This document shows positions 6,001 through 27,129 of a DNA stretch of 29,533 bases, piece by piece. Position 1 is the first letter of the stretch. Every line of letters begins with the position of its first letter. The notes beneath the pieces are model-generated. The model saw only the letters and a list, made by a program, of their open reading frames with translations, did no database searches and was not told where the DNA came from. Location: contig CAYRNU010000001.1 of the NCBI GenBank assembly GCA_964425795.1, positions 1-29,533 of the forward strand, read 5' to 3'. Both the position numbers and the translations under genes were made by a program. Source of the DNA: an uncultured Candidatus Saccharibacteria bacterium. GTDB taxonomy: Bacteria > Patescibacteriota > Minisyncoccia > Phycocordibacterales > UBA1006.

Positions 6001-6165
6001 AACATTAAGGATAGCAGTATTGTTCTCAAAGTCATTAGCAGCCGCAGCTTCTAACAATGTAAGGAGGACAGATCCTGCGTTAAGGTCATTAAGTGGAGTC
6101 TCCGCAATAATCTTACGGATCATGTCACCTAGAATTTGATTGAAACTCTTAATTTGTATAGCCAT
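1..6165 (-). CDS. Giant baseplate J-like (wedge) protein with long beta-rich extension; 3'-truncated by window edge (>2055 aa)
   Basis: ATG at 6165 (MAIQIKSFNQILGDMIRKIIAETPLNDLNAGSV...). No stop found in this frame: read continuously over 1-2100 and translated or spot-checked elsewhere. Baseplate-J motifs GSLGNAGINTIT and GRDIETDVELRNRLKSYSITLARGT at about 5300-5480. Missing from the ORF track, presumably because there is no stop in the window. Confidence 0.88.
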   Translation of the reverse strand, partial: MAIQIKSFNQILGDMIRKIIAETPLNDLNAGSVLLTLLEAAAANDFENNTAILNVLELLNIDAIKNNDLDAKAGDFGLTRRAAIKASGLVNILNSNITKRSTGLYVIKPAPIAGQTKLYVNNTTGWSATGTLYIGRGTQSFEGPINYTSITVFPTYSEITLASALQKDHLISDIVIDSQGEPDRLIAAGTVVKIPANNQNPEVQYVTLRDAVIPSGEDVVKGVEVIALVAGSLGNAGINTITAFDVVPFTGAAVTNTSSFSSGRDIETDVELRNRLKSYSITLARGTAPSIIASVIGVSDPDDSNQVASAVITEPVKVGDPSILYIDDGSGFQPSFAGQSVDKLLSNAEGTEEFLQLANYPVPRPQAINVEEGPFTLKDGSFLRVIVDGEEETIFFSTSQFLNISAATLSEVIVALNANSTLFKARFVNKSANILLYPVAHDAEIIQVAPLRDTDDETLYANTILKFPTDEFSYIALYQNSTRLHEKGKSAELKTASFAQWNINTTSNIIIAVDGTPAQDRAFALSDFVGASSFASLTIDDWVAVFNDKFAGLTAEATPSQTMIIRSNKEGADSSIVVSGGTLLNKWFPNLPLESAGQTAQFELNRQTGNLRILTDVLPGDNFSAGVEDAKGFNISAATTTGTYNLASDASGRPAEMVLVVDSTVCNQVAVPLLIGSTITISNPSASTMRILSATADAFAALKPGDYIYIVQRTAGWVSAANSGLFKIKAKGGHTSQGVDTYVDVDNVGVVPEAGITISDSLDIKAFETDGFPQIWRGSYLDNPPAEPITGVVDSLNKDVAGVLATIYKSNSIKITSTTEKGGSIAVPVSIANASVIFAETATAQFGNPPHVATRISDKSLVGLFKRTAPVGTNVFLGRHTYTDAKGSLTANAVPDAPPFTGTYSETLQATELSQSAFDDYVSGTRGGNRGQFRTIKAKPASDQVGTQQGVARTELDWVTGDEVELVRPVNISSEDSIVVVMDKDATIKTIDVRMARTGRVNSGSGGGTFLPTTTEFSAFDQDNEPGIDFNNLTVWGKDINNTEFSDYAVWMRARNWYSTGGVAGSGGKMIVRSQQYGPNGEKLRFSIEYPTSVDQAPTTTFLNSPSYSMYSYFFGSGPARAAAIASGYTIAVQGPYPDTSTNFPNGSVSTGNYYDYTFSAGNLAPVQVGDVLSISDGSGVSNANMGQFRVEAKSGFTVRVFNPTASATSPGAPEITQVTAVADVIGTATQYTIDTVADVADSLDQTYFIVNDSQGTVAVWYDLNNAGNPPPSHGANRAIKVATVVTGDSASVVATKTGSVISLDNAYSVGVIGNQITLTNLVNGSLPVPSNGTSGFTTARSVNGTADNTLDGKYFIINDENGSVAVWYDVGDDGTQEPFHGANRSIRVPGVNYGDNATTVAAATVAVINPDLFFNASNVGPVITITNVADGNVPDATANTSGFAVSTTQQGSLSAAELITNAGNVVFFPLVGNDVQTIADTVNAGQIIAISPVGNPALTIDRATRQEFYTYGGNSTALGYGHNPTSLATRDHINLYDGVNWVKAFANVNPNFTLKGVSTLNGVAPSVYAMDTAPNDDISDLGEQFKLIPVSVTNIHHHLTQKALSQLPIVSDVRISNDRRNVQITSKQLGSAGAIEVIGGNANKAQAYIFGESEVASDVSGNYLLMKVPAFPDTFNVGDYIKVENDAGAKRLSRLITSDSITVTNPSSNIIEYNYNPKVTNIIAATTFAITDVSGSYGRPAGFVWRWTHSGGSVTLSDVRAGDQVFAFGNTLSWAQGNKVRNGGDGLVAGLPIIAVNDASNYFDVVNPYGKAMSATAVGSGNTVQICPTPIIKWNLAHSTRVNVTAISRTSNVVTVVASAPHFMNSGDTVNLQDSNNLVDSAYGPITVLNANSFTFASAGADFAEASVGASVIKDGLVPTRYRLQKLGFNGMVRISRQDGESPRFLDSGVAVDDYVIIGGTTFKSNNNGRFRVIAVDNDSIMIFNDSATDELITTRPFNNKSFSATWTANTNVVTGIAGTFKGLSIGDWVKKPEDPDSMYRQVVAFNPGTPDTA
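1840..2480 (-). repeat. Two tandem ~107-aa protein repeats inside the giant baseplate protein
   Basis: TYFIVNDSQGTVAVWYDLNNAGNPPPSHGANRAIKV vs KYFIINDENGSVAVWYDVGDDGTQEPFHGANRSIRV; the YFI codons lie 321 nt apart (2416-2424 and 2095-2103). Boundaries approximate. Confidence 0.85.
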
Positions 6166-14435: not shown

Positions 14436-14951
14436 TTACTCTTCAAAAGTGTCTTCAATGTCTTCACCAAAAGTTTCACCAAACGCTTTCTTACCTGCTT
14501 GGAGTTGTTCCTCCATCCATTTAATATTAGCGGGATCTTTTGTGGGATCTTTGATCGGCTCTTCTGCTTTCTTGGCTTGGGCACGTAACTCAGCTTCTCG
14601 CTCTTCACGTTCCATTTTCTCAGCCCAGTCTTCAGCTTGCTTTTCTTTATCCACTTCCATTTTAACATCTTCTTGCTCAAGTCTTTCTTCATCAGCTTTA
14701 GTTCGCTCAATGCGATCATAAAACTCATATAGAAGTTCTTCTAGAGTGTAAGATAAAAGAATAGGGTCTTTTAAGGGACGGTTATATGTTCTGGACCACC
14801 AGGATTGAAGAAAGAGGAGCATTTGCTCCTCTGAATCTAGATCAGCCCTTGCATTATAGGCTGCTAACTGCTTTATTGCTTCGAAGGTGCTTTGGGCTGT
14901 TTCGCTTGATCCGGAATTTTCTGAGTTTTCTTCTTTAGATCTTCTTTCCAT
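14436..14951 (-). CDS. Second tail assembly chaperone ORF (T-like; may be expressed as a frameshift fusion)
   Basis: Overlaps the upstream chaperone by 79 nt in the -1 frame; sits directly before tape measure. Confidence 0.7.
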   Translation of the reverse strand: MERRSKEENSENSGSSETAQSTFEAIKQLAAYNARADLDSEEQMLLFLQSWWSRTYNRPLKDPILLSYTLEELLYEFYDRIERTKADEERLEQEDVKMEVDKEKQAEDWAEKMEREEREAELRAQAKKAEEPIKDPTKDPANIKWMEEQLQAGKKAFGETFGEDIEDTFEE

Positions 14952-15274
14952 TGTTCCTCAGCCTCCTCAACTTTTCGAAACAGTGCTACTAAGCAATCTT
15001 CATCATCGATGAGAGATCCACCATTAGACTGCTTCCACCATTCTGGGGCGTCTATGATTTTAGCTCGTAACTGTGCAAGGATAACGGCAAAGCCAGTTAA
15101 TTCACCAGTAGGGTTAGGGTAATTTCCAAGCAGACGTGTTGTTTCAAGAGCCATCGAGTGCTTTTGACCAACATTCAATACGCATAGAACGGTAAAACGT
15201 CCACTGTATTCTTTGCCCATTGTAAGGCCAGTGTGTTCAAAATCAAATGTCTTTTCTTTACTAGGTAAATCCAT
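14873..15274 (-). CDS. Tail assembly chaperone (G-like)
   Basis: 133 aa between tubes and tape measure; RBS AAGGAG upstream; conserved-looking DAPEWWKQS segment. Confidence 0.7.
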   Translation of the reverse strand: MDLPSKEKTFDFEHTGLTMGKEYSGRFTVLCVLNVGQKHSMALETTRLLGNYPNPTGELTGFAVILAQLRAKIIDAPEWWKQSNGGSLIDDEDCLVALFRKVEEAEEQWKEDLKKKTQKIPDQAKQPKAPSKQ

Positions 15275-15323: not shown

Positions 15324-15920
15324 TTAGAAACCGAAGTTTCTTAATTTATTAGCTATATTACTTAGAGTACTGCCATCAAGTCGACTTGGGGCATTGTTAT
15401 CTTTAGAGTCGTTAATACCTTCAGCTCTAGCTGGTTTTCTCTCATCTTGAAACCCAATGGCTTTCCATTGCAGAGTTACATTAGATAGTTGATCAACTCT
15501 GATATCTTCAGCTCGTGAAGTAATCATAGCCTTACCAGTGTAAAACAATAACTGATCGTTAACGTCTCTCACTTCGATTGTGATGTACTGTTGAAATAAG
15601 AAATTAAGTGCGTCTGGTTGCCATAACTCAGTTCCAGCTGATTGACCTGGAATATGGAGTGCTGACATAGTGCCGTCCACTGTGATTCTTTGTGGGGCAA
15701 GTTCTGCAGGAAAATAGTCGTCGATAGTGTTAATCTCAGTTACTGTCGTGTTGATTCTCCAAGAGATACCAAAACAGAAACCTACAACCTTACCGTTGAT
15801 TTTAAGAATAGTACGAGCACCAGACGAGTATTTCGCTGATGGCTTAGTAGAGAAAACACCAGAAACATTCTGTGCTAAGTTATCTCCAATATTGTTCGGT
15901 CTATTATTAAAACCTGACAT
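15324..15920 (-). CDS. Tail tube protein paralog 3
   Basis: SGARTILKINGKVVGFCFGISWRINT...AELAPQRITVDGTMS aligns with the two upstream tube paralogs. Confidence 0.75.
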   Translation of the reverse strand: MSGFNNRPNNIGDNLAQNVSGVFSTKPSAKYSSGARTILKINGKVVGFCFGISWRINTTVTEINTIDDYFPAELAPQRITVDGTMSALHIPGQSAGTELWQPDALNFLFQQYITIEVRDVNDQLLFYTGKAMITSRAEDIRVDQLSNVTLQWKAIGFQDERKPARAEGINDSKDNNAPSRLDGSTLSNIANKLRNFGF

Positions 15921-15928
15921 CTATATCC

Positions 15929-16522
15929 TTAAAATTGCTGGCCAACGCCAGAGAAGTCTGCTACGAAACTATCTTCGTCTACGTATAAAGCAACGAAGTT
16001 AAAGCGCTGTGTAGCTACGCCACGCTTAGATAATGAAAAATCTGATTGAGTAATTCTTACGTTACGAATGTTTGCAACACCGATATCGTTTCCATTTCCA
16101 GTCTTTTGATAGACTTGAATATCGAAAGTTACACCATTTGAAAGTTTACTAGGATCAAGAGCTTCGTGGGCACGGCCGTCATTTCCAACTCCGTTACGAG
16201 CTAAGAAATCACTTCCACTATTTCCCCAAGCTGTTCCCCAGTTACCGATACCGTTACCAGCATCGTTACCGACTACACCTTGTGGAAGTTTACCTTTAAC
16301 AGCATCTTCAACACCTTTAGCATAACGTACAACAGTGAAGCTCCCTGAAACCGTGTATCCGAGTGGTTCCACTGAAGATCCTTCATACATACCTAATACT
16401 TTAGGAGTTTGAGTAAGAACATTAACTGAATAAGATAAATCAGTGCAGAAGGCCATGGTCTTATCATTGACCTTCACTTTCGCGTTTGCACCCGTAATGA
16501 AGAAAGGTTTAATACCTGACAT
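15929..16522 (-). CDS. Tail tube protein paralog 2
   Basis: FITGANAKVKVNDKTMAFCTDLSYSV...VEPLGYTVSGSFTVVRY; C-terminal NVRITQSDFSLSKRGVATQRFNFVALYVD. Confidence 0.8.
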   Translation of the reverse strand: MSGIKPFFITGANAKVKVNDKTMAFCTDLSYSVNVLTQTPKVLGMYEGSSVEPLGYTVSGSFTVVRYAKGVEDAVKGKLPQGVVGNDAGNGIGNWGTAWGNSGSDFLARNGVGNDGRAHEALDPSKLSNGVTFDIQVYQKTGNGNDIGVANIRNVRITQSDFSLSKRGVATQRFNFVALYVDEDSFVADFSGVGQQF

Positions 16523-16542: not shown

Positions 16543-17106
16543 TTACGATAAGTCTGTATCGCCAGAGTATGATGAATCGAAAGATTCGTCATCAGCTAAG
16601 ATACCAACAAAAGAAAGACGGTCAACTAAGATACCACGTTTATTCAACGAAGCACTCTTACGTGTGAAACGGCAATCTTTGATTGTGATGAACTCAACAG
16701 AGTCTGTCACAGTAGCAGTTCCACCAGCAGCAGTTGCGCCAGTTTGTTCTTTTTGGAAAACAGATAAATCCCATGTTTGAGATAACAAAATGTTTCCTGG
16801 GTTGATTTCGTTAGCGCCGTTTCCACCAGTAGTGTAATCGACTTTACCTAAACCGTTACCACCTGTGTTCGTTCCAGGCATATTGTTTGTCTTAGCAATT
16901 CCAGTGTAACGAACAACTGATAATTCACCAGCTACTGAGTAGTTTACTGGTTCGTTAGTTACTGCTTCATATCGACCCATTGTTTCGATAGGAATAGTAT
17001 CTACGGCTACTTGATATGATACGTCAGCTGCATAAGCAAACGTCTTACCGCCTACTTTAATCTTAGCATTCGCACCTGTGATAAATGAGGGCTTTTTACC
17101 TGCCAT
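16543..17106 (-). CDS. Tail tube protein paralog 1 (probable start MAGKKPS at 17106)
   Basis: First gene after the sheath; FITGANAKIKVGGKTFAYAADVSY...NEPVNYSVAGELSVVRY; RBS AAGGA before ATG 17106. Confidence 0.82.
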   Translation of the reverse strand: MAGKKPSFITGANAKIKVGGKTFAYAADVSYQVAVDTIPIETMGRYEAVTNEPVNYSVAGELSVVRYTGIAKTNNMPGTNTGGNGLGKVDYTTGGNGANEINPGNILLSQTWDLSVFQKEQTGATAAGGTATVTDSVEFITIKDCRFTRKSASLNKRGILVDRLSFVGILADDESFDSSYSGDTDLS

Positions 17107-17153
17107 TTGAGTTCCTTTTGGTCTTGTGGTTGACCTTACCATCCATTTTTTTA

Positions 17154-17259: not shown

Positions 17260-19479
17260 TTAAGCTGTTTGAGTTGCGCGTTGCAGAGTGATATCTGCTA
17301 ACACGAAATCGATACCTTCAACTAATTTCACAACTACTGCGATATTAACAGTGTTACCGTTAATTTGAACAACTAATTGTTTGAAACCGTTTTTAGCATC
17401 AGAAGTAGAAACAGTAATACCTTGAGCTAAGTAAGTTGCAAGGATAGCCTCACAAGTACTCTTAATCTCAGCAGCAGAAACTGTGTTCTTCAATCCAACA
17501 TAGATATTCTCTAATTGGTTACGGAAGTCGTAAGCCAATACGTCTGAAGCGTACAACACGTTACCACGGTTGTTAACCCAGTTTCCATCCTTATTGTAAG
17601 TTGTATTATCAACTACAAGGCGGAATCCACCAGTTTGAGGAGCTTCCCAGAACGTTAAAGCGTTCGCGATAGCATCGTCGTACTGTGTATCTGGATCAAA
17701 ATCAACAACGATATCTTGCTCAGCAGTGCTCATTGGTTGAGCCGTTTGACGGATACCTGACATGTTGAAGTATTTGAATGTCATTGGGTTACCAATTGGT
17801 GAACCACCGCGTGCACCAGCAAGTAATGCTGCGCCAGCCCATGGTTGGAACCACTTGATGTTACCTTCAGAATCTGTTTGACGAATGTCTTGGATTACCA
17901 TTTGGATGCGAGCAGCAGCCATTGTAGCAATCTTAACTTTAGCGTCAGAATAAGATCCTTTGAAAGATAAGTAACCTTGTCTTTCAGATTTTTTCTTAGT
18001 AGTAGACATCAAGCTTAAGTGAGTTTTCACGGCTTGGTGGATACCATCGATAGTATATGTAGAAGCAGCATCAGTCAATTGGTCAGCAATATCATCAGCG
18101 GCATCGCGTGAGAATAAAGGAACAACAGAGTTAACACGGAACTTCTCGAACTTACTTAATGCAGTAACGATATCAGCAGAAGCAGTAGCTCCTTTTGAAC
18201 CGCCAGATAAGTAAATAGCATTTGGCACGCCTTGTTGATCTGGAAGACCAACTTTCTTAACGCTTGATTGGCTCACTAGAGGAATTAATTCAACTTGTGA
18301 AGACAATGCGAAGAAGTCAGCAACTTTTTTAGCATCTTGTTTGATGCGAGCAGGCATAGCACCTGAAGCAGCATGAAATGCACCAGTTGCAGCAACTTGG
18401 TCTAATACTGAAAGAGACAATTGTCCTAACAATACTGAACCAGCTTGTGCGATCCAACCTGGAAGTGTGTTTACGTAATCAACTAAAGCTTGAACATTTG
18501 GGAAGTCAGCTTTATTTAATACATAAGAAGTAGGTGTTGCGCCAGTTTGTGAAAGAGTAACTGAAGAAGCAGACACCGCTACAGTTGCAGCAGTTGCGCC
18601 ACCAGTTGAATCACGACCCATCATCAACACGATTTCGCCACCAACTGTTTGACTCTCTTCAAGAGTAGTAACAGGGTTACGAACAGTTAATGTAGCCATT
18701 GGTTCAGAAGCAGCAGCAGTCCAACCAGCAACGTGGCCGATTGATACAAGTGCTGTACCACCAGTGATTTCCATTGAACGACCAGAACCATTTTGATTCA
18801 AGTTAGATCCAGCAGCCATTGCAATTTCAATTGATGTTCCATCGGCTGATACTTCCCAGCTAGAACCCATTGCAGTTTGAATAGCAGCAGCTAAAGCAGC
18901 AGCGTTCGCGTACGAAGCAGCAGCGATAGTTGAAGTAACAGAAGCACCACCGTTTTGACGAGCGATGATTGTGTCGTTAGATGCAGAAGTAATTACTACT
19001 GGGTAAGTTGGAGCTGATCCAGTTACCGCAGCAGGAGTTTCTGCCGTTAATACGTTTTTAAAAGTAATTTGATTTCCTGACGTTCCCCATTGACGAGCAC
19101 GAAGACGACCGAAATCAGTTGCACCAGCTTCGATTGAAGCAAGTTCAGCACGAATAGATGCGTTTGTTTTGTAGATGTAAATCGCTTGCGCTCCACCTGG
19201 GATTGCACCGTCTGCTCCAGGAGCAAACAAGAAGTTACATGCGTCTACTAAATTACCGCGTCCATATTTGTCACGGATTTGAGCCATTTGATCTGGACCA
19301 AATACGTTATTAGCGATGTTTGTTTCTGCAGAGCCAGGAGCTCCTGCATCCGCTTCTCCAAATACTGCAACGATACCAGTTGGAGAAAGAGGAAATCCTC
19401 CGCCAAGGTCGATTGTAGTCTTAGAGTAAGCACCTGGTTTGAAAATGGTTGCACCATTAAAGCTTACATTAATTGCCAT
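17260..19479 (-). CDS. Contractile tail sheath protein
   Basis: 739 aa; N-terminal FNGATIFKPGAYS...GIVAVFGEADAGAPG; C-terminal sheath domain LYASDVLAYDFRNQLE...VVVKLVEGIDFVLADITL; RBS AGGAG. Confidence 0.92.
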   Translation of the reverse strand: MAINVSFNGATIFKPGAYSKTTIDLGGGFPLSPTGIVAVFGEADAGAPGSAETNIANNVFGPDQMAQIRDKYGRGNLVDACNFLFAPGADGAIPGGAQAIYIYKTNASIRAELASIEAGATDFGRLRARQWGTSGNQITFKNVLTAETPAAVTGSAPTYPVVITSASNDTIIARQNGGASVTSTIAAASYANAAALAAAIQTAMGSSWEVSADGTSIEIAMAAGSNLNQNGSGRSMEITGGTALVSIGHVAGWTAAASEPMATLTVRNPVTTLEESQTVGGEIVLMMGRDSTGGATAATVAVSASSVTLSQTGATPTSYVLNKADFPNVQALVDYVNTLPGWIAQAGSVLLGQLSLSVLDQVAATGAFHAASGAMPARIKQDAKKVADFFALSSQVELIPLVSQSSVKKVGLPDQQGVPNAIYLSGGSKGATASADIVTALSKFEKFRVNSVVPLFSRDAADDIADQLTDAASTYTIDGIHQAVKTHLSLMSTTKKKSERQGYLSFKGSYSDAKVKIATMAAARIQMVIQDIRQTDSEGNIKWFQPWAGAALLAGARGGSPIGNPMTFKYFNMSGIRQTAQPMSTAEQDIVVDFDPDTQYDDAIANALTFWEAPQTGGFRLVVDNTTYNKDGNWVNNRGNVLYASDVLAYDFRNQLENIYVGLKNTVSAAEIKSTCEAILATYLAQGITVSTSDAKNGFKQLVVQINGNTVNIAVVVKLVEGIDFVLADITLQRATQTA

Positions 19480-19511
19480 TGTTAAGTCTCCTGAGTCAAG
19501 TTTCTGACTTC

Positions 19512-19520
19512 ATTATAACA
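19512..19520 (-). promoter_or_regulatory. Extended -10 promoter TGTTATAAT upstream of sheath
   Basis: TG-N-TATAAT, 32 nt upstream of ATG 19479. Confidence 0.6.
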
Positions 19521-19872: not shown

Positions 19873-20616
19873 TTAAATGTTCATATCTTCATCGCCGTCG
19901 TCATCTCCGACTCGGCTAACTTTAATCCCGTCGTTAGCTGTGATATCGACATCTTGGATATCGACATCTAGAGAGGTAGCTATGTCACTAGCCGGCTCCA
20001 ATCCAACTGCAGGATCAACGTTAATGCTGTCGACTTGGTGAAACGATTCTGAGCTCCAAAAGTTCTGAGTCGTACAACGAAATCTAACCCAACGAGTCCA
20101 GATATTCTCTGTCATCTTAGCATTATCTTTATTATAGTCTGAGGCTGAAAAGGTATGTAATTTCAATCCTAATCTGTGGGCCATCAGTTTATGTTTAAAT
20201 AGAATATAAGCCACCATGTAGTACATCCATAGTACGTGGTCGCCGGCTTTATTAGCGTGGACCCCAATGTCAACCATAGCGGTAAATACACCAGTTCCAG
20301 TTTCACCGTTCTCGTCAAATACTCCAGCATAGTCACCAATAGAGGCTTTAGACTCATCTTCGGTTTCATTAGCTAAGTGAACTGAGATACAAGGAATAAC
20401 TTGAGCATTGAAGCTCCAAGCCTTAACTACAGGTATCTTAGTTGTAGAGAACCATTTCCAGACTTCGTCTAGATATTTCTGACCATAGTCATCATTTAGT
20501 TCATCTTGTTTGAACTGACAAAATAAATCATAGAACTCAGCCTTATTAGAACGCAGTTGTTTAATTCCGTGCTCCAATACTTTCTGTACTACGATCTCAG
20601 GCATTACAAATGACAT
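19873..20616 (-). CDS. Putative tail completion / terminator-like neck protein
   Basis: 247 aa just upstream of the sheath; IPCISVHLANETEDE and TRWVRFRCTTQ pattern; assignment mostly by synteny. Confidence 0.55.
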   Translation of the reverse strand: MSFVMPEIVVQKVLEHGIKQLRSNKAEFYDLFCQFKQDELNDDYGQKYLDEVWKWFSTTKIPVVKAWSFNAQVIPCISVHLANETEDESKASIGDYAGVFDENGETGTGVFTAMVDIGVHANKAGDHVLWMYYMVAYILFKHKLMAHRLGLKLHTFSASDYNKDNAKMTENIWTRWVRFRCTTQNFWSSESFHQVDSINVDPAVGLEPASDIATSLDVDIQDVDITANDGIKVSRVGDDDGDEDMNI

Positions 20617-21026
20617 TAGAAACCACCTTTACTTAGATTATCATTCCACCACAAAGGTTGAAGATTTGTGTAATGGCAGGCTTTCTTTAATTCTTCTGGG
20701 TTAGTTAAATCAAACGCCGATAACGGAACGATATGATCGATATGCCAACCTTTAACGCCTCTATTACTCCAATTCATATCAGGAGTGAATTTAGATTCTA
20801 AGTAGCTTTTGAATTCTTCTATAGAGCAACCTAGGTCACGCACAGCAGATCCATTTTTACAATTAATACTAATAGCCTTGTTTAGGCGATTTCTAAGAAG
20901 ATTACGAAGCTTTTCAGATTCAGTCATAGGATTAAGTCGACGCCACTCTCTTTGCTTGGCATTTACATAGTCACGATTGACTTCTTTCCATTTTTTAGAG
21001 CTTATCTTATTTTTAAGTCTGCTCAT
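20616..21026 (-). CDS. Free-standing HNH homing endonuclease
   Basis: LGCSIEEFKSYLESKF...NWSN.G..GWHIDHIVPLSAFDL...CHYTNLQPLW..DNLSKG is a characteristic HNH family motif; TAATG overlaps with both neighbours. Confidence 0.85.
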   Translation of the reverse strand: MSRLKNKISSKKWKEVNRDYVNAKQREWRRLNPMTESEKLRNLLRNRLNKAISINCKNGSAVRDLGCSIEEFKSYLESKFTPDMNWSNRGVKGWHIDHIVPLSAFDLTNPEELKKACHYTNLQPLWWNDNLSKGGF

Positions 21027-23192: not shown

Positions 23193-23225
23193 AGATCAAT
23201 AAGCTCCCAGTGATTCGATAGGATC

Positions 23226-23234
23226 ATTATAACT
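23226..23234 (-). promoter_or_regulatory. -10 element AGTTATAAT upstream of the Nudix gene
   Basis: Followed by a leader containing SD GGGAG before ATG 23192. Confidence 0.5.
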
Positions 23235-24084: not shown

Positions 24085-24138
24085 ATTATACCTGATTAGC
24101 GATTGAAATGGGTCTAGGCTCAATTATCCTGTTATAAT
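24085..24138. promoter_or_regulatory. Divergent promoter pair (GGTATAAT minus, 24085-24092; TGTTATAAT plus, 24130-24138)
   Basis: Back-to-back -10 elements at the strand switch. Confidence 0.55.
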
Positions 24139-24172
24139 GATTGTAGACTTAATCTGAAACAAATGGGATGTA

Positions 24173-24430: not shown

Positions 24431-24656
24431 TGATGCTAATATTCTAGAACAAATAGTTCAATTAGAGGGAAAGTGCATGGATTCCCAGAGGTGTAAATTA
24501 TGTCCGTTCCGTGTAATGTGTCTACCAGAATTCATAAATCCAAATCCGCCAAGTCCAGAACAGCGAATGAAGATGTCGCTCGACGTACTTGCTCATCATG
24601 CTCTTGTGGACGATCTCCCCTTGGAAGCGACCGAATACAAATGGGACAAAAAGTAA
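24414..24656 (+). CDS. Small Cys-rich protein (paralog B)
   Basis: SD GGAG then ATG 24414; ILEQIVQLEGKCMDSQRCKLCPFRVMC. Confidence 0.7.
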   Translation: MALSNNDANILEQIVQLEGKCMDSQRCKLCPFRVMCLPEFINPNPPSPEQRMKMSLDVLAHHALVDDLPLEATEYKWDKK

Positions 24657-24961: not shown

Positions 24962-24970
24962 TGTTATAAT
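24962..24970 (+). promoter_or_regulatory. Extended -10 TGTTATAAT
   Basis: Immediately after stop 24959; a GGAGG SD follows at about 24998-25002. Confidence 0.5.
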
Positions 24971-25007
24971 AGAGATACCAACCTTGATCCTAACATAGGA
25001 GGCGAAC

Positions 25008-25950: not shown

Positions 25951-26135
25951 ATTCTACTATCCGCCACCATTACGTGTATTCGTCCGTCATTGCCGAACCA
26001 GTAGATTGTACCGTCTTTATAAAATCCACCTTCGATACCATTGCTGATCGTCTTATATTTCAATAGCTTCATGGCAAGAAACATTACGTTGCGAACAGGG
26101 AATCTAGGATAGATAGTCCAGTCTGGTCGATTCAC
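25947..26135 (-). CDS. Micro-protein, helix-motif family (RNVMFLAMKLLK)
   Basis: 62 aa; ATGA overlaps on both sides. Confidence 0.6.
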   Translation of the reverse strand: MNRPDWTIYPRFPVRNVMFLAMKLLKYKTISNGIEGGFYKDGTIYWFGNDGRIHVMVADSRI

Positions 26136-26365
26136 GGATAATTAGTAAGCGTTCTGAAGACGCTCTCCCACGGGAATTTAACAAATCGCTTATCTAGTCT
26201 ACATAAAACATATAAGAGTTTTTGGCGATGCAAGTCGCCTTCGATCATGTGAAGGTATGCTTTAAAAACAGAACCTTTTTCTAAGTCTTGGATAGGCGTA
26301 GATGAAACCATCCCCGCTATCATCGCGTCAAGAATTTCTTTGTACGTCTTTGGTGAAGAGCTCAC
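26132..26365 (-). CDS. Micro-protein: baseplate-J N-terminal mimic + helix motif
   Basis: GTG start 26365 after GGAAGG. KTYKEILDAMIAGMVSSTPIQDLEKGSV matches KSFNQILGDMIRKIIAETPLNDLNAGSV at 12/28, ungapped; then QKLLYVLCRLD. Confidence 0.75.
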   Translation of the reverse strand: MSSSPKTYKEILDAMIAGMVSSTPIQDLEKGSVFKAYLHMIEGDLHRQKLLYVLCRLDKRFVKFPWESVFRTLTNYP

Positions 26366-26409
26366 GAATATACCTTCCAACTGTAACGAACGCGACGTAC
26401 CAAGCTAAA

Positions 26410-26643
26410 CTAAGTATTAGACCCATCAGAGCCATCGCTATCAACAGTCTCGATAGGGATTGCTGTAATACCAGCATCAAAGCTTGCGTCTTTTGCATAA
26501 GCGACGTCTTGTCCATTTATCTTTAACCTCAAAAGTCTTCCTCTTAAGATGGAAGGCTTGTTATTTATTATAGCGCTTTTAATCCCCAATTTCTTGAGGA
26601 AGAATAAGAACTTTCTGTATTCCCAAGTGTCCCATTGAATCAT
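26410..26643 (-). CDS. Micro-protein: helix motif + tail-tube N-terminal mimic
   Basis: RKFLFFLKKLGIKSA, then KPSILRGRLLRLKINGQDVAYAKDASFDAGITAIPIET, 16/38 identical and ungapped to tube paralog 1. Confidence 0.8.
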   Translation of the reverse strand: MIQWDTWEYRKFLFFLKKLGIKSAIINNKPSILRGRLLRLKINGQDVAYAKDASFDAGITAIPIETVDSDGSDGSNT

Positions 26644-26822
26644 AATTTTGGTCCTGGCATTCTTCGCTTAAGTGTATATCCTCGTGGAAAACCTGCAGAT
26701 TTAATATCTAACTTTCTCAATAAAAACTTTAAATCCCTAATAGATTGTTGTTCTACAGTGAGTCCACCATAGTTACCTGGTACTCGCAGCGTAACCCCAC
26801 CAAATATTCTAGTTATAGCCAT
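26640..26822 (-). CDS. Micro-protein: tail-sheath N-terminal mimic + helix motif
   Basis: SD GGAG then ATG 26822. MAITRIFGGVTLRVPGNY vs sheath MAINVSFNGATIFKPGAY, 9/18 identical; then RDLKFLLRKLDIKSA. Confidence 0.78.
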   Translation of the reverse strand: MAITRIFGGVTLRVPGNYGGLTVEQQSIRDLKFLLRKLDIKSAGFPRGYTLKRRMPGPKL

Positions 26823-26892: not shown

Positions 26893-27129
26893 TCATTTCT
26901 TCAACTTACTTGGATCAAATGTTGCTTTGCTTAGTGTCTTCTCTAAAGATTCAAATGCAGCGGCACCCATGAAAACTTGATCTGGTTTTCCGCCACTGTA
27001 CATTCCAACTTCAAGTGCTTCCATCAAATCAAGAATCATATCCTCACTAGAGAATTCTGCACTCTTAATTCCGAGCTTCTTCACGAAGTGTTTAAGTTTT
27101 CTGTATTGCTTTTTACTCTCAATGTTCAT
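26893..27129 (-). CDS. Micro-protein: helix motif + possible major-capsid-like segment
   Basis: RKLKHFVKKLGIKSA, then ...MYSGGKPDQVFMGAAAFESLEKTL; TATAAT 6 nt before the ATG. Confidence 0.7.
   Translation of the reverse strand: MNIESKKQYRKLKHFVKKLGIKSAEFSSEDMILDLMEALEVGMYSGGKPDQVFMGAAAFESLEKTLSKATFDPSKLKK

Follow-up and report, generated by a model that had tools for sequence, protein, structure and literature searches.

A tagged phage micro-protein gene carrying an old fragment of a tail-tube N-terminus

In eukaryotes, microProteins such as the Id proteins and LITTLE ZIPPER are small, derive from the interaction region of a larger protein and titrate this parent. Among phage proteins, the internal proteins of T4 share a capsid-targeting sequence, which is N-terminal and is removed by the prohead protease. 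The hyperplastic regions of T4-type phages are known for the shuffling of promoter cassettes (PeSL) (PMC2839356, PMC4122927). In solved tail tubes, as in that of YSD1, ring and inter-ring contacts are driven by the N-arm, beta1 and beta2 elements (PMC7385642), and the tube sensor DSR2 is inhibited by the SPbeta protein DSAD1, which binds another conformation of the sensor and is not described as a tube fragment (PMC10981675).

The locus compared here with these systems lies in a window of 29,533 nucleotides (the whole stretch of DNA that we analysed), which is contig C1 of a 587-kb metagenomic bin and encodes the tail module of a large myophage on its minus strand. The nearest isolate is Myxococcus phage Mx1, with 33% identity in the sheath, and DNA near-identical to the window is contained in bioreactor and wastewater metagenomes; related phage contigs reach 146-177 kb. 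In addition to the genes listed below, the tail module encodes a tape measure protein and a tube-initiator-like protein (PF23980), whereas no Rfam families or tRNAs were found in the window. The phage contig (29.5 kb) has a GC content of 41%, compared with ~44% for the bin (81 contigs, 587 kb, rated 91.5% complete), and may be mis-binned or host-linked. The features on which the comparison draws are as follows.

26410..26643, minus strand: micro-protein gene (P0001), 77 aa; its ATG and the stop codon of the preceding ORF overlap as ATGA, and AGGA stands 5 nt before the ATG
26572..26634, minus strand: family tag, residues 4-24 of the micro-protein (W-D-T-W-E-Y-R-K-F-L-F-F-L-K-K-L-G-I-K-S-A), the most conserved part of the protein
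26443..26559, minus strand: tube-like segment, residues 29-67, corresponding to the predicted N-arm, beta1 and beta2 of tube-1 (from BLASTP, profile-profile comparison and pN/pS)
26410..26442, minus strand: Asp/Gly/Ser-rich tail and stop codon; in the +1 frame, these bases encode the membrane helix of an overlapping ORF
26328..26516, minus strand: this +1-frame ORF, 62 aa with one strongly hydrophobic helix, starting at codon 43 of the micro-protein gene
26640..26822, minus strand: upstream partner ORF, with a copy of the sheath N-arm (M-A-I-T...P-G-N-Y-G-G), the tag and a vestige of a tube-like strand; translationally coupled to the micro-protein gene
26132..26365, minus strand: downstream ORF, in which a copy of baseplate-J residues 6-33, from the N-terminus of that protein, precedes a degenerate tag-like helix; conserved in relatives
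17260..19479, minus strand: tail sheath gene (phrog_279, E 3e-26), whose first 22-24 codons served as source or model for the upstream partner ORF
16543-17142, 15929-16522 and 15324-15920, minus strand: three tube paralogues (tube-1, tube-2 and tube-3, respectively), with weak phrog_3776 matches
16978..17094, minus strand: part of tube-1 that matches the micro-protein (residues 5-43), from the BLASTP alignment
6043..6165, minus strand: 5' end of the gene for a baseplate-J-domain protein of >2055 aa (Pfam Baseplate_J, E 1.8e-10), matched by the downstream ORF

The tag, F-L-x-K-L-G-I-K-S-A or looser forms of it, recurs in at least 10-13 ORFs of 36-82 aa between positions 24640 and 28340 of the window, on both strands. 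Its codons differ between neighbouring ORFs (serine, for example, being encoded by TCA, AGC, TCT or AGT) and, because the motif is kept across paralogues that use different codons, it is selected at the protein level; the tag of the initial annotation is thus real, with at least 10 neighbouring small ORFs carrying it. The micro-protein belongs to this local family, as it carries the protein-level-conserved motif in a small ORF of the 24-28.4 kb block. Like the internal proteins of T4, these are small phage proteins that have nothing in common except one short conserved peptide, but the position of the tag varies among family members from residue 14 to 39 (N-terminal, central or C-terminal), so that it is not an N-terminal cleavable signal, and we found neither a protease site nor signs of packaging for the family. 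An origin of the tag from a structural protein was rejected because its motif HMM had no match in the 18 large structural proteins of the window, and a likeness by eye to residues 51-65 of J and to the N-terminus of the 587-aa baseplate protein (E 0.03) was dropped. In more distant relatives of the phage (L017), tagged ORFs are present and the tube copy is absent.

Behind the tag, the initial annotation had recognized the N-terminal segment of a tail-tube protein, and both pairwise and profile comparisons confirmed this. By BLASTP, residues 29-67 of the micro-protein align without gaps with residues 5-43 of tube-1, with 16 of 39 positions identical and 24 of 39 positive (E 9e-10); the E-value for tube-1 was 3.5e-8 among the 18 large window proteins and 2e-6 within the 587-kb bin. 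Profile-profile alignment of the micro-protein family with the tube family by hhalign gave a probability of 96% and an E-value of 4e-9 over 42 columns. In a shuffle control against the 18 large window proteins, 5 of 4000 shuffled micro-proteins reached E<=1e-3. The early stop after a short acidic tail, which had also been described, is present, the tail being rich in Asp, Gly and Ser. When the lineages are taken together, 24 of 40 positions match tube-1 in at least one variant, with different lineages retaining different tube residues, and this pattern indicates that the micro-protein probably decayed from an ancestor that was more tube-like.

The profile of the micro-protein family gave its highest scores with tube-1 orthologues (27-28 bits), followed by tube-3 (18-20 bits) and tube-2 (11-14 bits), so that the source is of the tube-1 type. 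A scan of 1.84 billion representatives contained no full-length tube closer to the segment than tube-1. As to whether the closest match is the tube of this phage or that of another, which had been suggested as a check, the source can be assigned to the tube-1 type of this phage group, within which 'own' and 'foreign' tubes are indistinguishable because the segment is near-invariant. The micro-protein and tube genes share 50% nucleotide identity, with the third base shared at 7 of the 16 identical residues, so the copy is old; this identity also rules out recent gene conversion from tube-1. The micro-protein matched nothing in Pfam, PHROGs or the ESM Atlas, and resembles no known anti-defence family in these resources. 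Co-folding of tube-1 with the micro-protein, using the family alignments, gave a score of 0.00 and a low pLDDT, an outcome that speaks neither for nor against binding.

The tube-1 protein itself is 187 aa long (16543-17106, minus strand), its true start being the methionine of MAGKKPSF as set by 187-aa orthologues, and it occurs in >500 relatives. Its identification as a tail tube is a prediction that rests on its position directly after the sheath gene, a weak phrog_3776 match and the matches of its AF2 model. The alignment-based model (pLDDT 63; a single-sequence run gave 33) has strands at residues 4-18, 21-39 and 51-68, followed by three C-terminal strands, and its best PDB matches are the tail tubes of phages 812, R4C, lambda and T5, together with Hcp (top E 1.5e-5, probability 1.00); sequence searches of the PDB with tube-1 gave no match. 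On this model, the micro-protein segment would be the N-arm, beta1 and beta2, as far as the tip of the long beta2-beta3 hairpin. The statement that this region is part of the polymerization interface is reasonable from solved tubes (PMC7385642), and for this particular protein stands as family knowledge only.

Homology with tail tubes (phage 812/Pfam PF26461, the N-domain of lambda gpV and Hcp) is confined to residues 29-67, which are homologous with the N-arm, beta1 and beta2 of tube-1. Unlike these proteins, however, the micro-protein has about 40 of ~187 residues and is fused to an unrelated helix motif; instead of the complete fold, a two-sheet beta-sandwich of about 130-200 aa with a long beta2-beta3 hairpin, it has 77 aa and ends at the hairpin tip. 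Since beta3 and the second sheet are absent, the fragment cannot form the sandwich. Its gene does not lie in the tail module, but 9.3 kb upstream in the micro-gene block, with an opposite-strand cluster between them. The micro-protein, lacking the fold and lying in the wrong context, fails as a member of the tube family. It resembles the eukaryotic microProteins by analogy, in that it derives from the interaction-rich N-terminus of a larger, polymerizing protein of the same genome, but here the mimicking half drifts, the setting is a prokaryotic virus, a family tag is added and binding to the parent is hypothetical. Likeness to DSAD1, as a phage protein interfering with tail-tube recognition, would hold only if the micro-protein acted as a decoy, and the two are set apart by description, DSAD1 not being described as a tube fragment.

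The micro-protein has few relatives: among 5.8 billion plus 1.84 billion proteins there were only five, of 74-77 aa, and one distant form of 89 aa (P0128), and all of these occupy a single syntenic position, upstream of the structural module. The profile search of the 1.84 billion representatives returned the family, P0128 and P0127 only, and P0127 (2071 aa) was rejected as a spurious translation of tandem repeats. Beyond the family, scans of IMG/VR and metagenome contigs found only the P0128 phage and a tube gene, and 50,697 phage records contained no match. Two DNA runs carry the identical gene sequence with no variants at the stop codon; runs labelled 'RNA' are probably DNA, and the micro-protein gene is not covered in them. 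The initial annotation had named full-length tube homologues and a recent truncation as grounds for abandoning its reading, and both fail: the homologues are 74-89 aa long, none is a full-length tube, and a recent pseudogene or truncation is ruled out by these homologues, by the 50% nucleotide identity, by purifying selection and by the variant-free stop. In related strains from two wastewater runs, positions 26352-26792, which include the tube and sheath copies, are missing, whereas the flanks match at 90-99%; the locus is hypervariable.

Variation within the micro-protein family is distributed very unevenly along the gene. In codons 1-42, variable columns number 4, 1 and 14 at codon positions 1, 2 and 3 respectively (p 7e-4). 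The tag is near-invariant in the family alignment, with a pN/pS of 0.08, and codons 1-28 show a pS of 0.55 and a pN of 0.04. Summed pN/pS rises from 0.12 for residues 29-46 to 0.56 for residues 47-57 and 1.08 for residues 58-74. Residues 47-67, the half of the match with the most identities (10 of 20), are weakly constrained and dual-coding; a strand pattern with aromatic residues 49 and 55 is retained. The conserved first strand agrees with the tube at only 6 of 18 residues. Between two of the phages, tube-1 is 97% identical, whereas the micro-proteins are 58% identical. Because the best-matching half drifts while the tube stays 97% identical, we take the likeness to the tube as the mark of an old reused fragment. 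The micro-protein genes of L004 and L012 have a synonymous divergence of 0.67 in codons 1-28 and of 0 in codons 29-46, a contrast that suggests a recombination breakpoint at the tag or a constraint at the nucleotide level.

The drifting half coincides with the +1-frame ORF, which overlaps 35 codons at the end of the micro-protein gene and runs into the beginning of the next gene. In all five sequenced lineages, and likewise in that of P0128 (L010, 4092-4241), this ORF is open from an unchanged start position, and its start is preceded by GAGG. The 19-aa Kyte-Doolittle mean of its helix is 2.3-2.9, and the 'acidic tail' of the micro-protein is the other reading of this hydrophobic helix; Pfam searches with the ORF gave weak sub-threshold matches only. 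The 44 nt that separate the micro-protein stop from the next gene have the +1 frame as their sole frame, and variable columns there number 12, 3 and 0 at its codon positions 3, 1 and 2 respectively (p 4e-4), a third-position bias that marks the ORF as a real coding frame. Within the overlap, variation is roughly even across the three positions (22/12/16), and no other stretch changes as fast. The low synonymous divergence of codons 29-46 may reflect the embedded ribosome-binding region of the overlapping ORF, and conservation of the first strand could be partly at the nucleotide level. Frameshift fusion, either of the sheath-N ORF to the micro-protein or of the micro-protein to the membrane ORF, was rejected: a slippery site is absent, stops lie immediately ahead of the +1 ATG, and this ATG is conserved.

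The two neighbours of the micro-protein gene also resemble the N-termini of tail proteins. The upstream ORF is in register with residues 1-24 of the sheath (10 of 24 identical, pairwise E 1e-3; profile-profile E 2.5e-5, probability 75%) and keeps P15, G16 and Y18, residues that are invariant in sheaths as distant as that of Mx1. The sheath copy evolves fast and has no clear third-position bias between lineages. The downstream ORF matches the J protein at 12 of 28 positions (E 3e-6 pairwise, 5e-5 against all large window proteins). When 20 small ORFs were compared with the 18 large proteins, the top three matches were these three adjacent ORFs, all at the N-termini of their targets, and all three copied pieces begin no more than six residues from the N-terminus of the source. 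A 'capsid-like' reading of 26893-27129 gained no support: neither this ORF nor its relatives in L010 have any further match in the bin or the 146-kb sister genome.

A sister phage has the sheath-like N-arm, the tag and the tube-like strands in a single ORF, which encodes P0128 (89 aa; L008 2867-3136, L010 3911-4180). This protein is the only distant match of the profile search, occupies the syntenic slot of the 146-kb phage and matches two tube paralogues there. The upstream ORF aligns with residues 1-65 of P0128 (E 8e-12), a stretch that includes the tag and the vestige of the first tube strand (G-Y-x-L-K), and the micro-protein aligns with residues 31-75 (E 2e-9). As both align with P0128, the micro-protein and the upstream ORF are overlapping partial paralogues of a P0128-like gene, and the one vestigial motif suggests that the fused form may be older than the split.

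How the N-termini of late proteins may have reached the block is suggested by promoter-like motifs. Four exact copies of GTTATAATR lie at 19511-19519 (minus strand), 23225-23233 (minus strand), 24131-24139 (plus strand) and 24963-24971 (plus strand), reading GTTATAATG in three cases and GTTATAATA at 24963-24971; all four are intergenic and are oriented toward the sheath gene, the gene for a Nudix protein and two micro-genes. Other genes have copies with one mismatch in front of them, and one such copy, GCTATAATA, is situated within the micro-protein gene itself, 50 nt ahead of the +1 ORF. The total count of motifs of this type is not above chance. A plausible origin would be that promoter-plus-5'-end cassettes were copied into the hypervariable micro-gene block, as in T4-type phages; such copying would explain why N-terminal fragments are fused to members of the tag family. 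The locus shares with PeSL remnants the hypervariable micro-gene block, the 5'-end copies and a promoter-like motif common to source genes and micro-genes, but it differs in the age of its fragments (50% nucleotide identity), in the purifying selection that acts on part of them and in their fusion to a conserved motif; PeSL stem-loops were not found.

We consider the best overall explanation, with a probability of roughly 60%, to be that P0001 is a real, translated micro-protein gene that carries an old, reused tube fragment behind the family tag. On this explanation, a sheath-N/tag/tube-N ancestor of the P0128 type would have given rise to the micro-protein and its upstream neighbour as tandem partial copies; purifying selection would be confined to the tag and the first tube strand (residues 1-46), and the second strand and the acidic tail would drift within the stretch overprinted by the +1-frame membrane-protein gene. 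The tag helix would dock to a partner common to the family, through which the protein would act, with the tube-derived hairpin as its variable payload. As a concrete mechanism we prefer, tentatively and at clearly less than even odds, pairing of the conserved first strand with an exposed beta edge of a tube-fold protein. Judged from these substitution patterns, a reused fragment, in which the working parts would be the tag and a small hairpin, appears favoured, and a maintained copy of the tube interface fits less well. Read conservatively in this way, the locus records a datable birth of micro-genes, from the copying of late-gene 5' ends through fusion to the motif and a split by tandem duplication to overprinting, and it illustrates that 'mimicry' inferred from a single sequence can be a relic, as the best-matching half is the least constrained. 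We rate fragment-derived micro-genes and overprinting as known kinds, and this variant of them as new.

A bolder and rather doubtful reading takes the trio of adjacent ORFs and the fused 89-aa form as dedicated, tagged mimics of the strand-exchanging N-arms of sheath, tube and baseplate-J, which would serve as microProtein-like regulators or poisons of contractile-tail assembly or as antagonists of host sensors for unassembled tail monomers, with the shared helix as a common effector or docking module. The kept sheath residues P15, G16 and Y18 hint that arm mimicry might have been selected after all. If this were true, it would be the first set of phage micro-proteins built from the polymerization arms of the phage's own tail proteins, and a novel means by which the assembly of tails could be controlled, sabotaged or hidden.

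A specific form of such activity, which we regard as unlikely, would be an assembly modulator of the microProtein type, in which the free N-arm/beta1-beta2 unit adds to tube-1 monomers or to the growing tube and caps or delays its polymerization; its sheath-N and J-N neighbours would join it in a set of brakes, chaperones or poisons for tail assembly, directed against the phage itself or co-infecting relatives. The segment does span the ring and inter-ring contact elements of solved tubes (PMC7385642), the three adjacent ORFs copy the N-termini of three polymerizing tail proteins, one ORF of the ancestral type joins the sheath arm to tube strands, and the sheath N-terminus is an exchanged 'handshake' strand (PMC10457771); motifs of the GTTATAATG type precede both structural genes and micro-genes. 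However, residues 47-67 drift while the tube is near-invariant, which argues against a need for the whole segment in binding; only 6 of 18 residues of the conserved first strand are those of the tube, a poison would strike the phage's own tube, and the family is restricted to a tiny clade whereas the tube occurs in >500 relatives.

The initial annotation had also considered a decoy or chain-terminator role plausible, and for this we found no positive evidence; residues 47-67 are weakly constrained, dual-coding and divergent between sister phages. As an antagonist or decoy against defence, the fragment would occupy a host sensor of monomeric tube (DSR2- or Avs-like) without activating it, which we judge improbable. 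The background to this idea holds, in that tube proteins do trigger defences and tube-sensing systems exist: DSR2 contacts beta2 and beta8 of the tube monomer (PMC10981675), Avs proteins bind tube proteins according to a review (PMC13728456), and the gene lies in a hypervariable micro-gene block, which is typical of counter-defence genes. But an invariant target should keep a decoy target-like, and the beta2 region diverges freely; the contact with DSR2 takes in the whole D1 domain, burying about 3000 A2 (PMC10981675), so that two strands would be a partial ligand at best; the fragment could equally trigger the sensor; and the micro-protein has no similarity to any known anti-defence family.

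It is a little less probable again that the peptide is functionless and that its frame is kept open only so that ribosomes or regulatory signals reach the membrane-protein gene and those downstream of it. The ATGA coupling upstream, the embedded +1 start with its GAGG, the low level of synonymous change in codons 29-46 and the TATAAT/TACAAT conserved within codons 24-26 are consistent with such a role, but codons 1-28 combine a high pS with a very low pN (0.55 against 0.04) and the tag is conserved as protein in paralogues that use different codons. Chance or convergent beta-strand composition can be dismissed as very improbable: the segment is a short one, and strands often have alternating hydrophobic patterns, but the pairwise and profile-profile E-values (9e-10 and 4e-9), the rarity of shuffled proteins reaching E<=1e-3 (5 of 4000), the retention of different tube-identical residues in different lineages and the matches of two neighbours to the N-termini of two other tail proteins all speak against it.

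Two further regions of the tail module and its surroundings were noted. At 14436-15274 (minus strand), overlapping ORFs of 133 and 171 aa lie between tube-3 and the tape measure gene; neither matched Pfam, and their placement resembles that of a tail-assembly-chaperone frameshift pair. At 20616-21026 (minus strand), a 136-aa ORF with no Pfam match and, by eye, an H-N-H-like motif lies between structural genes of 214 and 247 aa, and in L005 and L006 those two genes abut.
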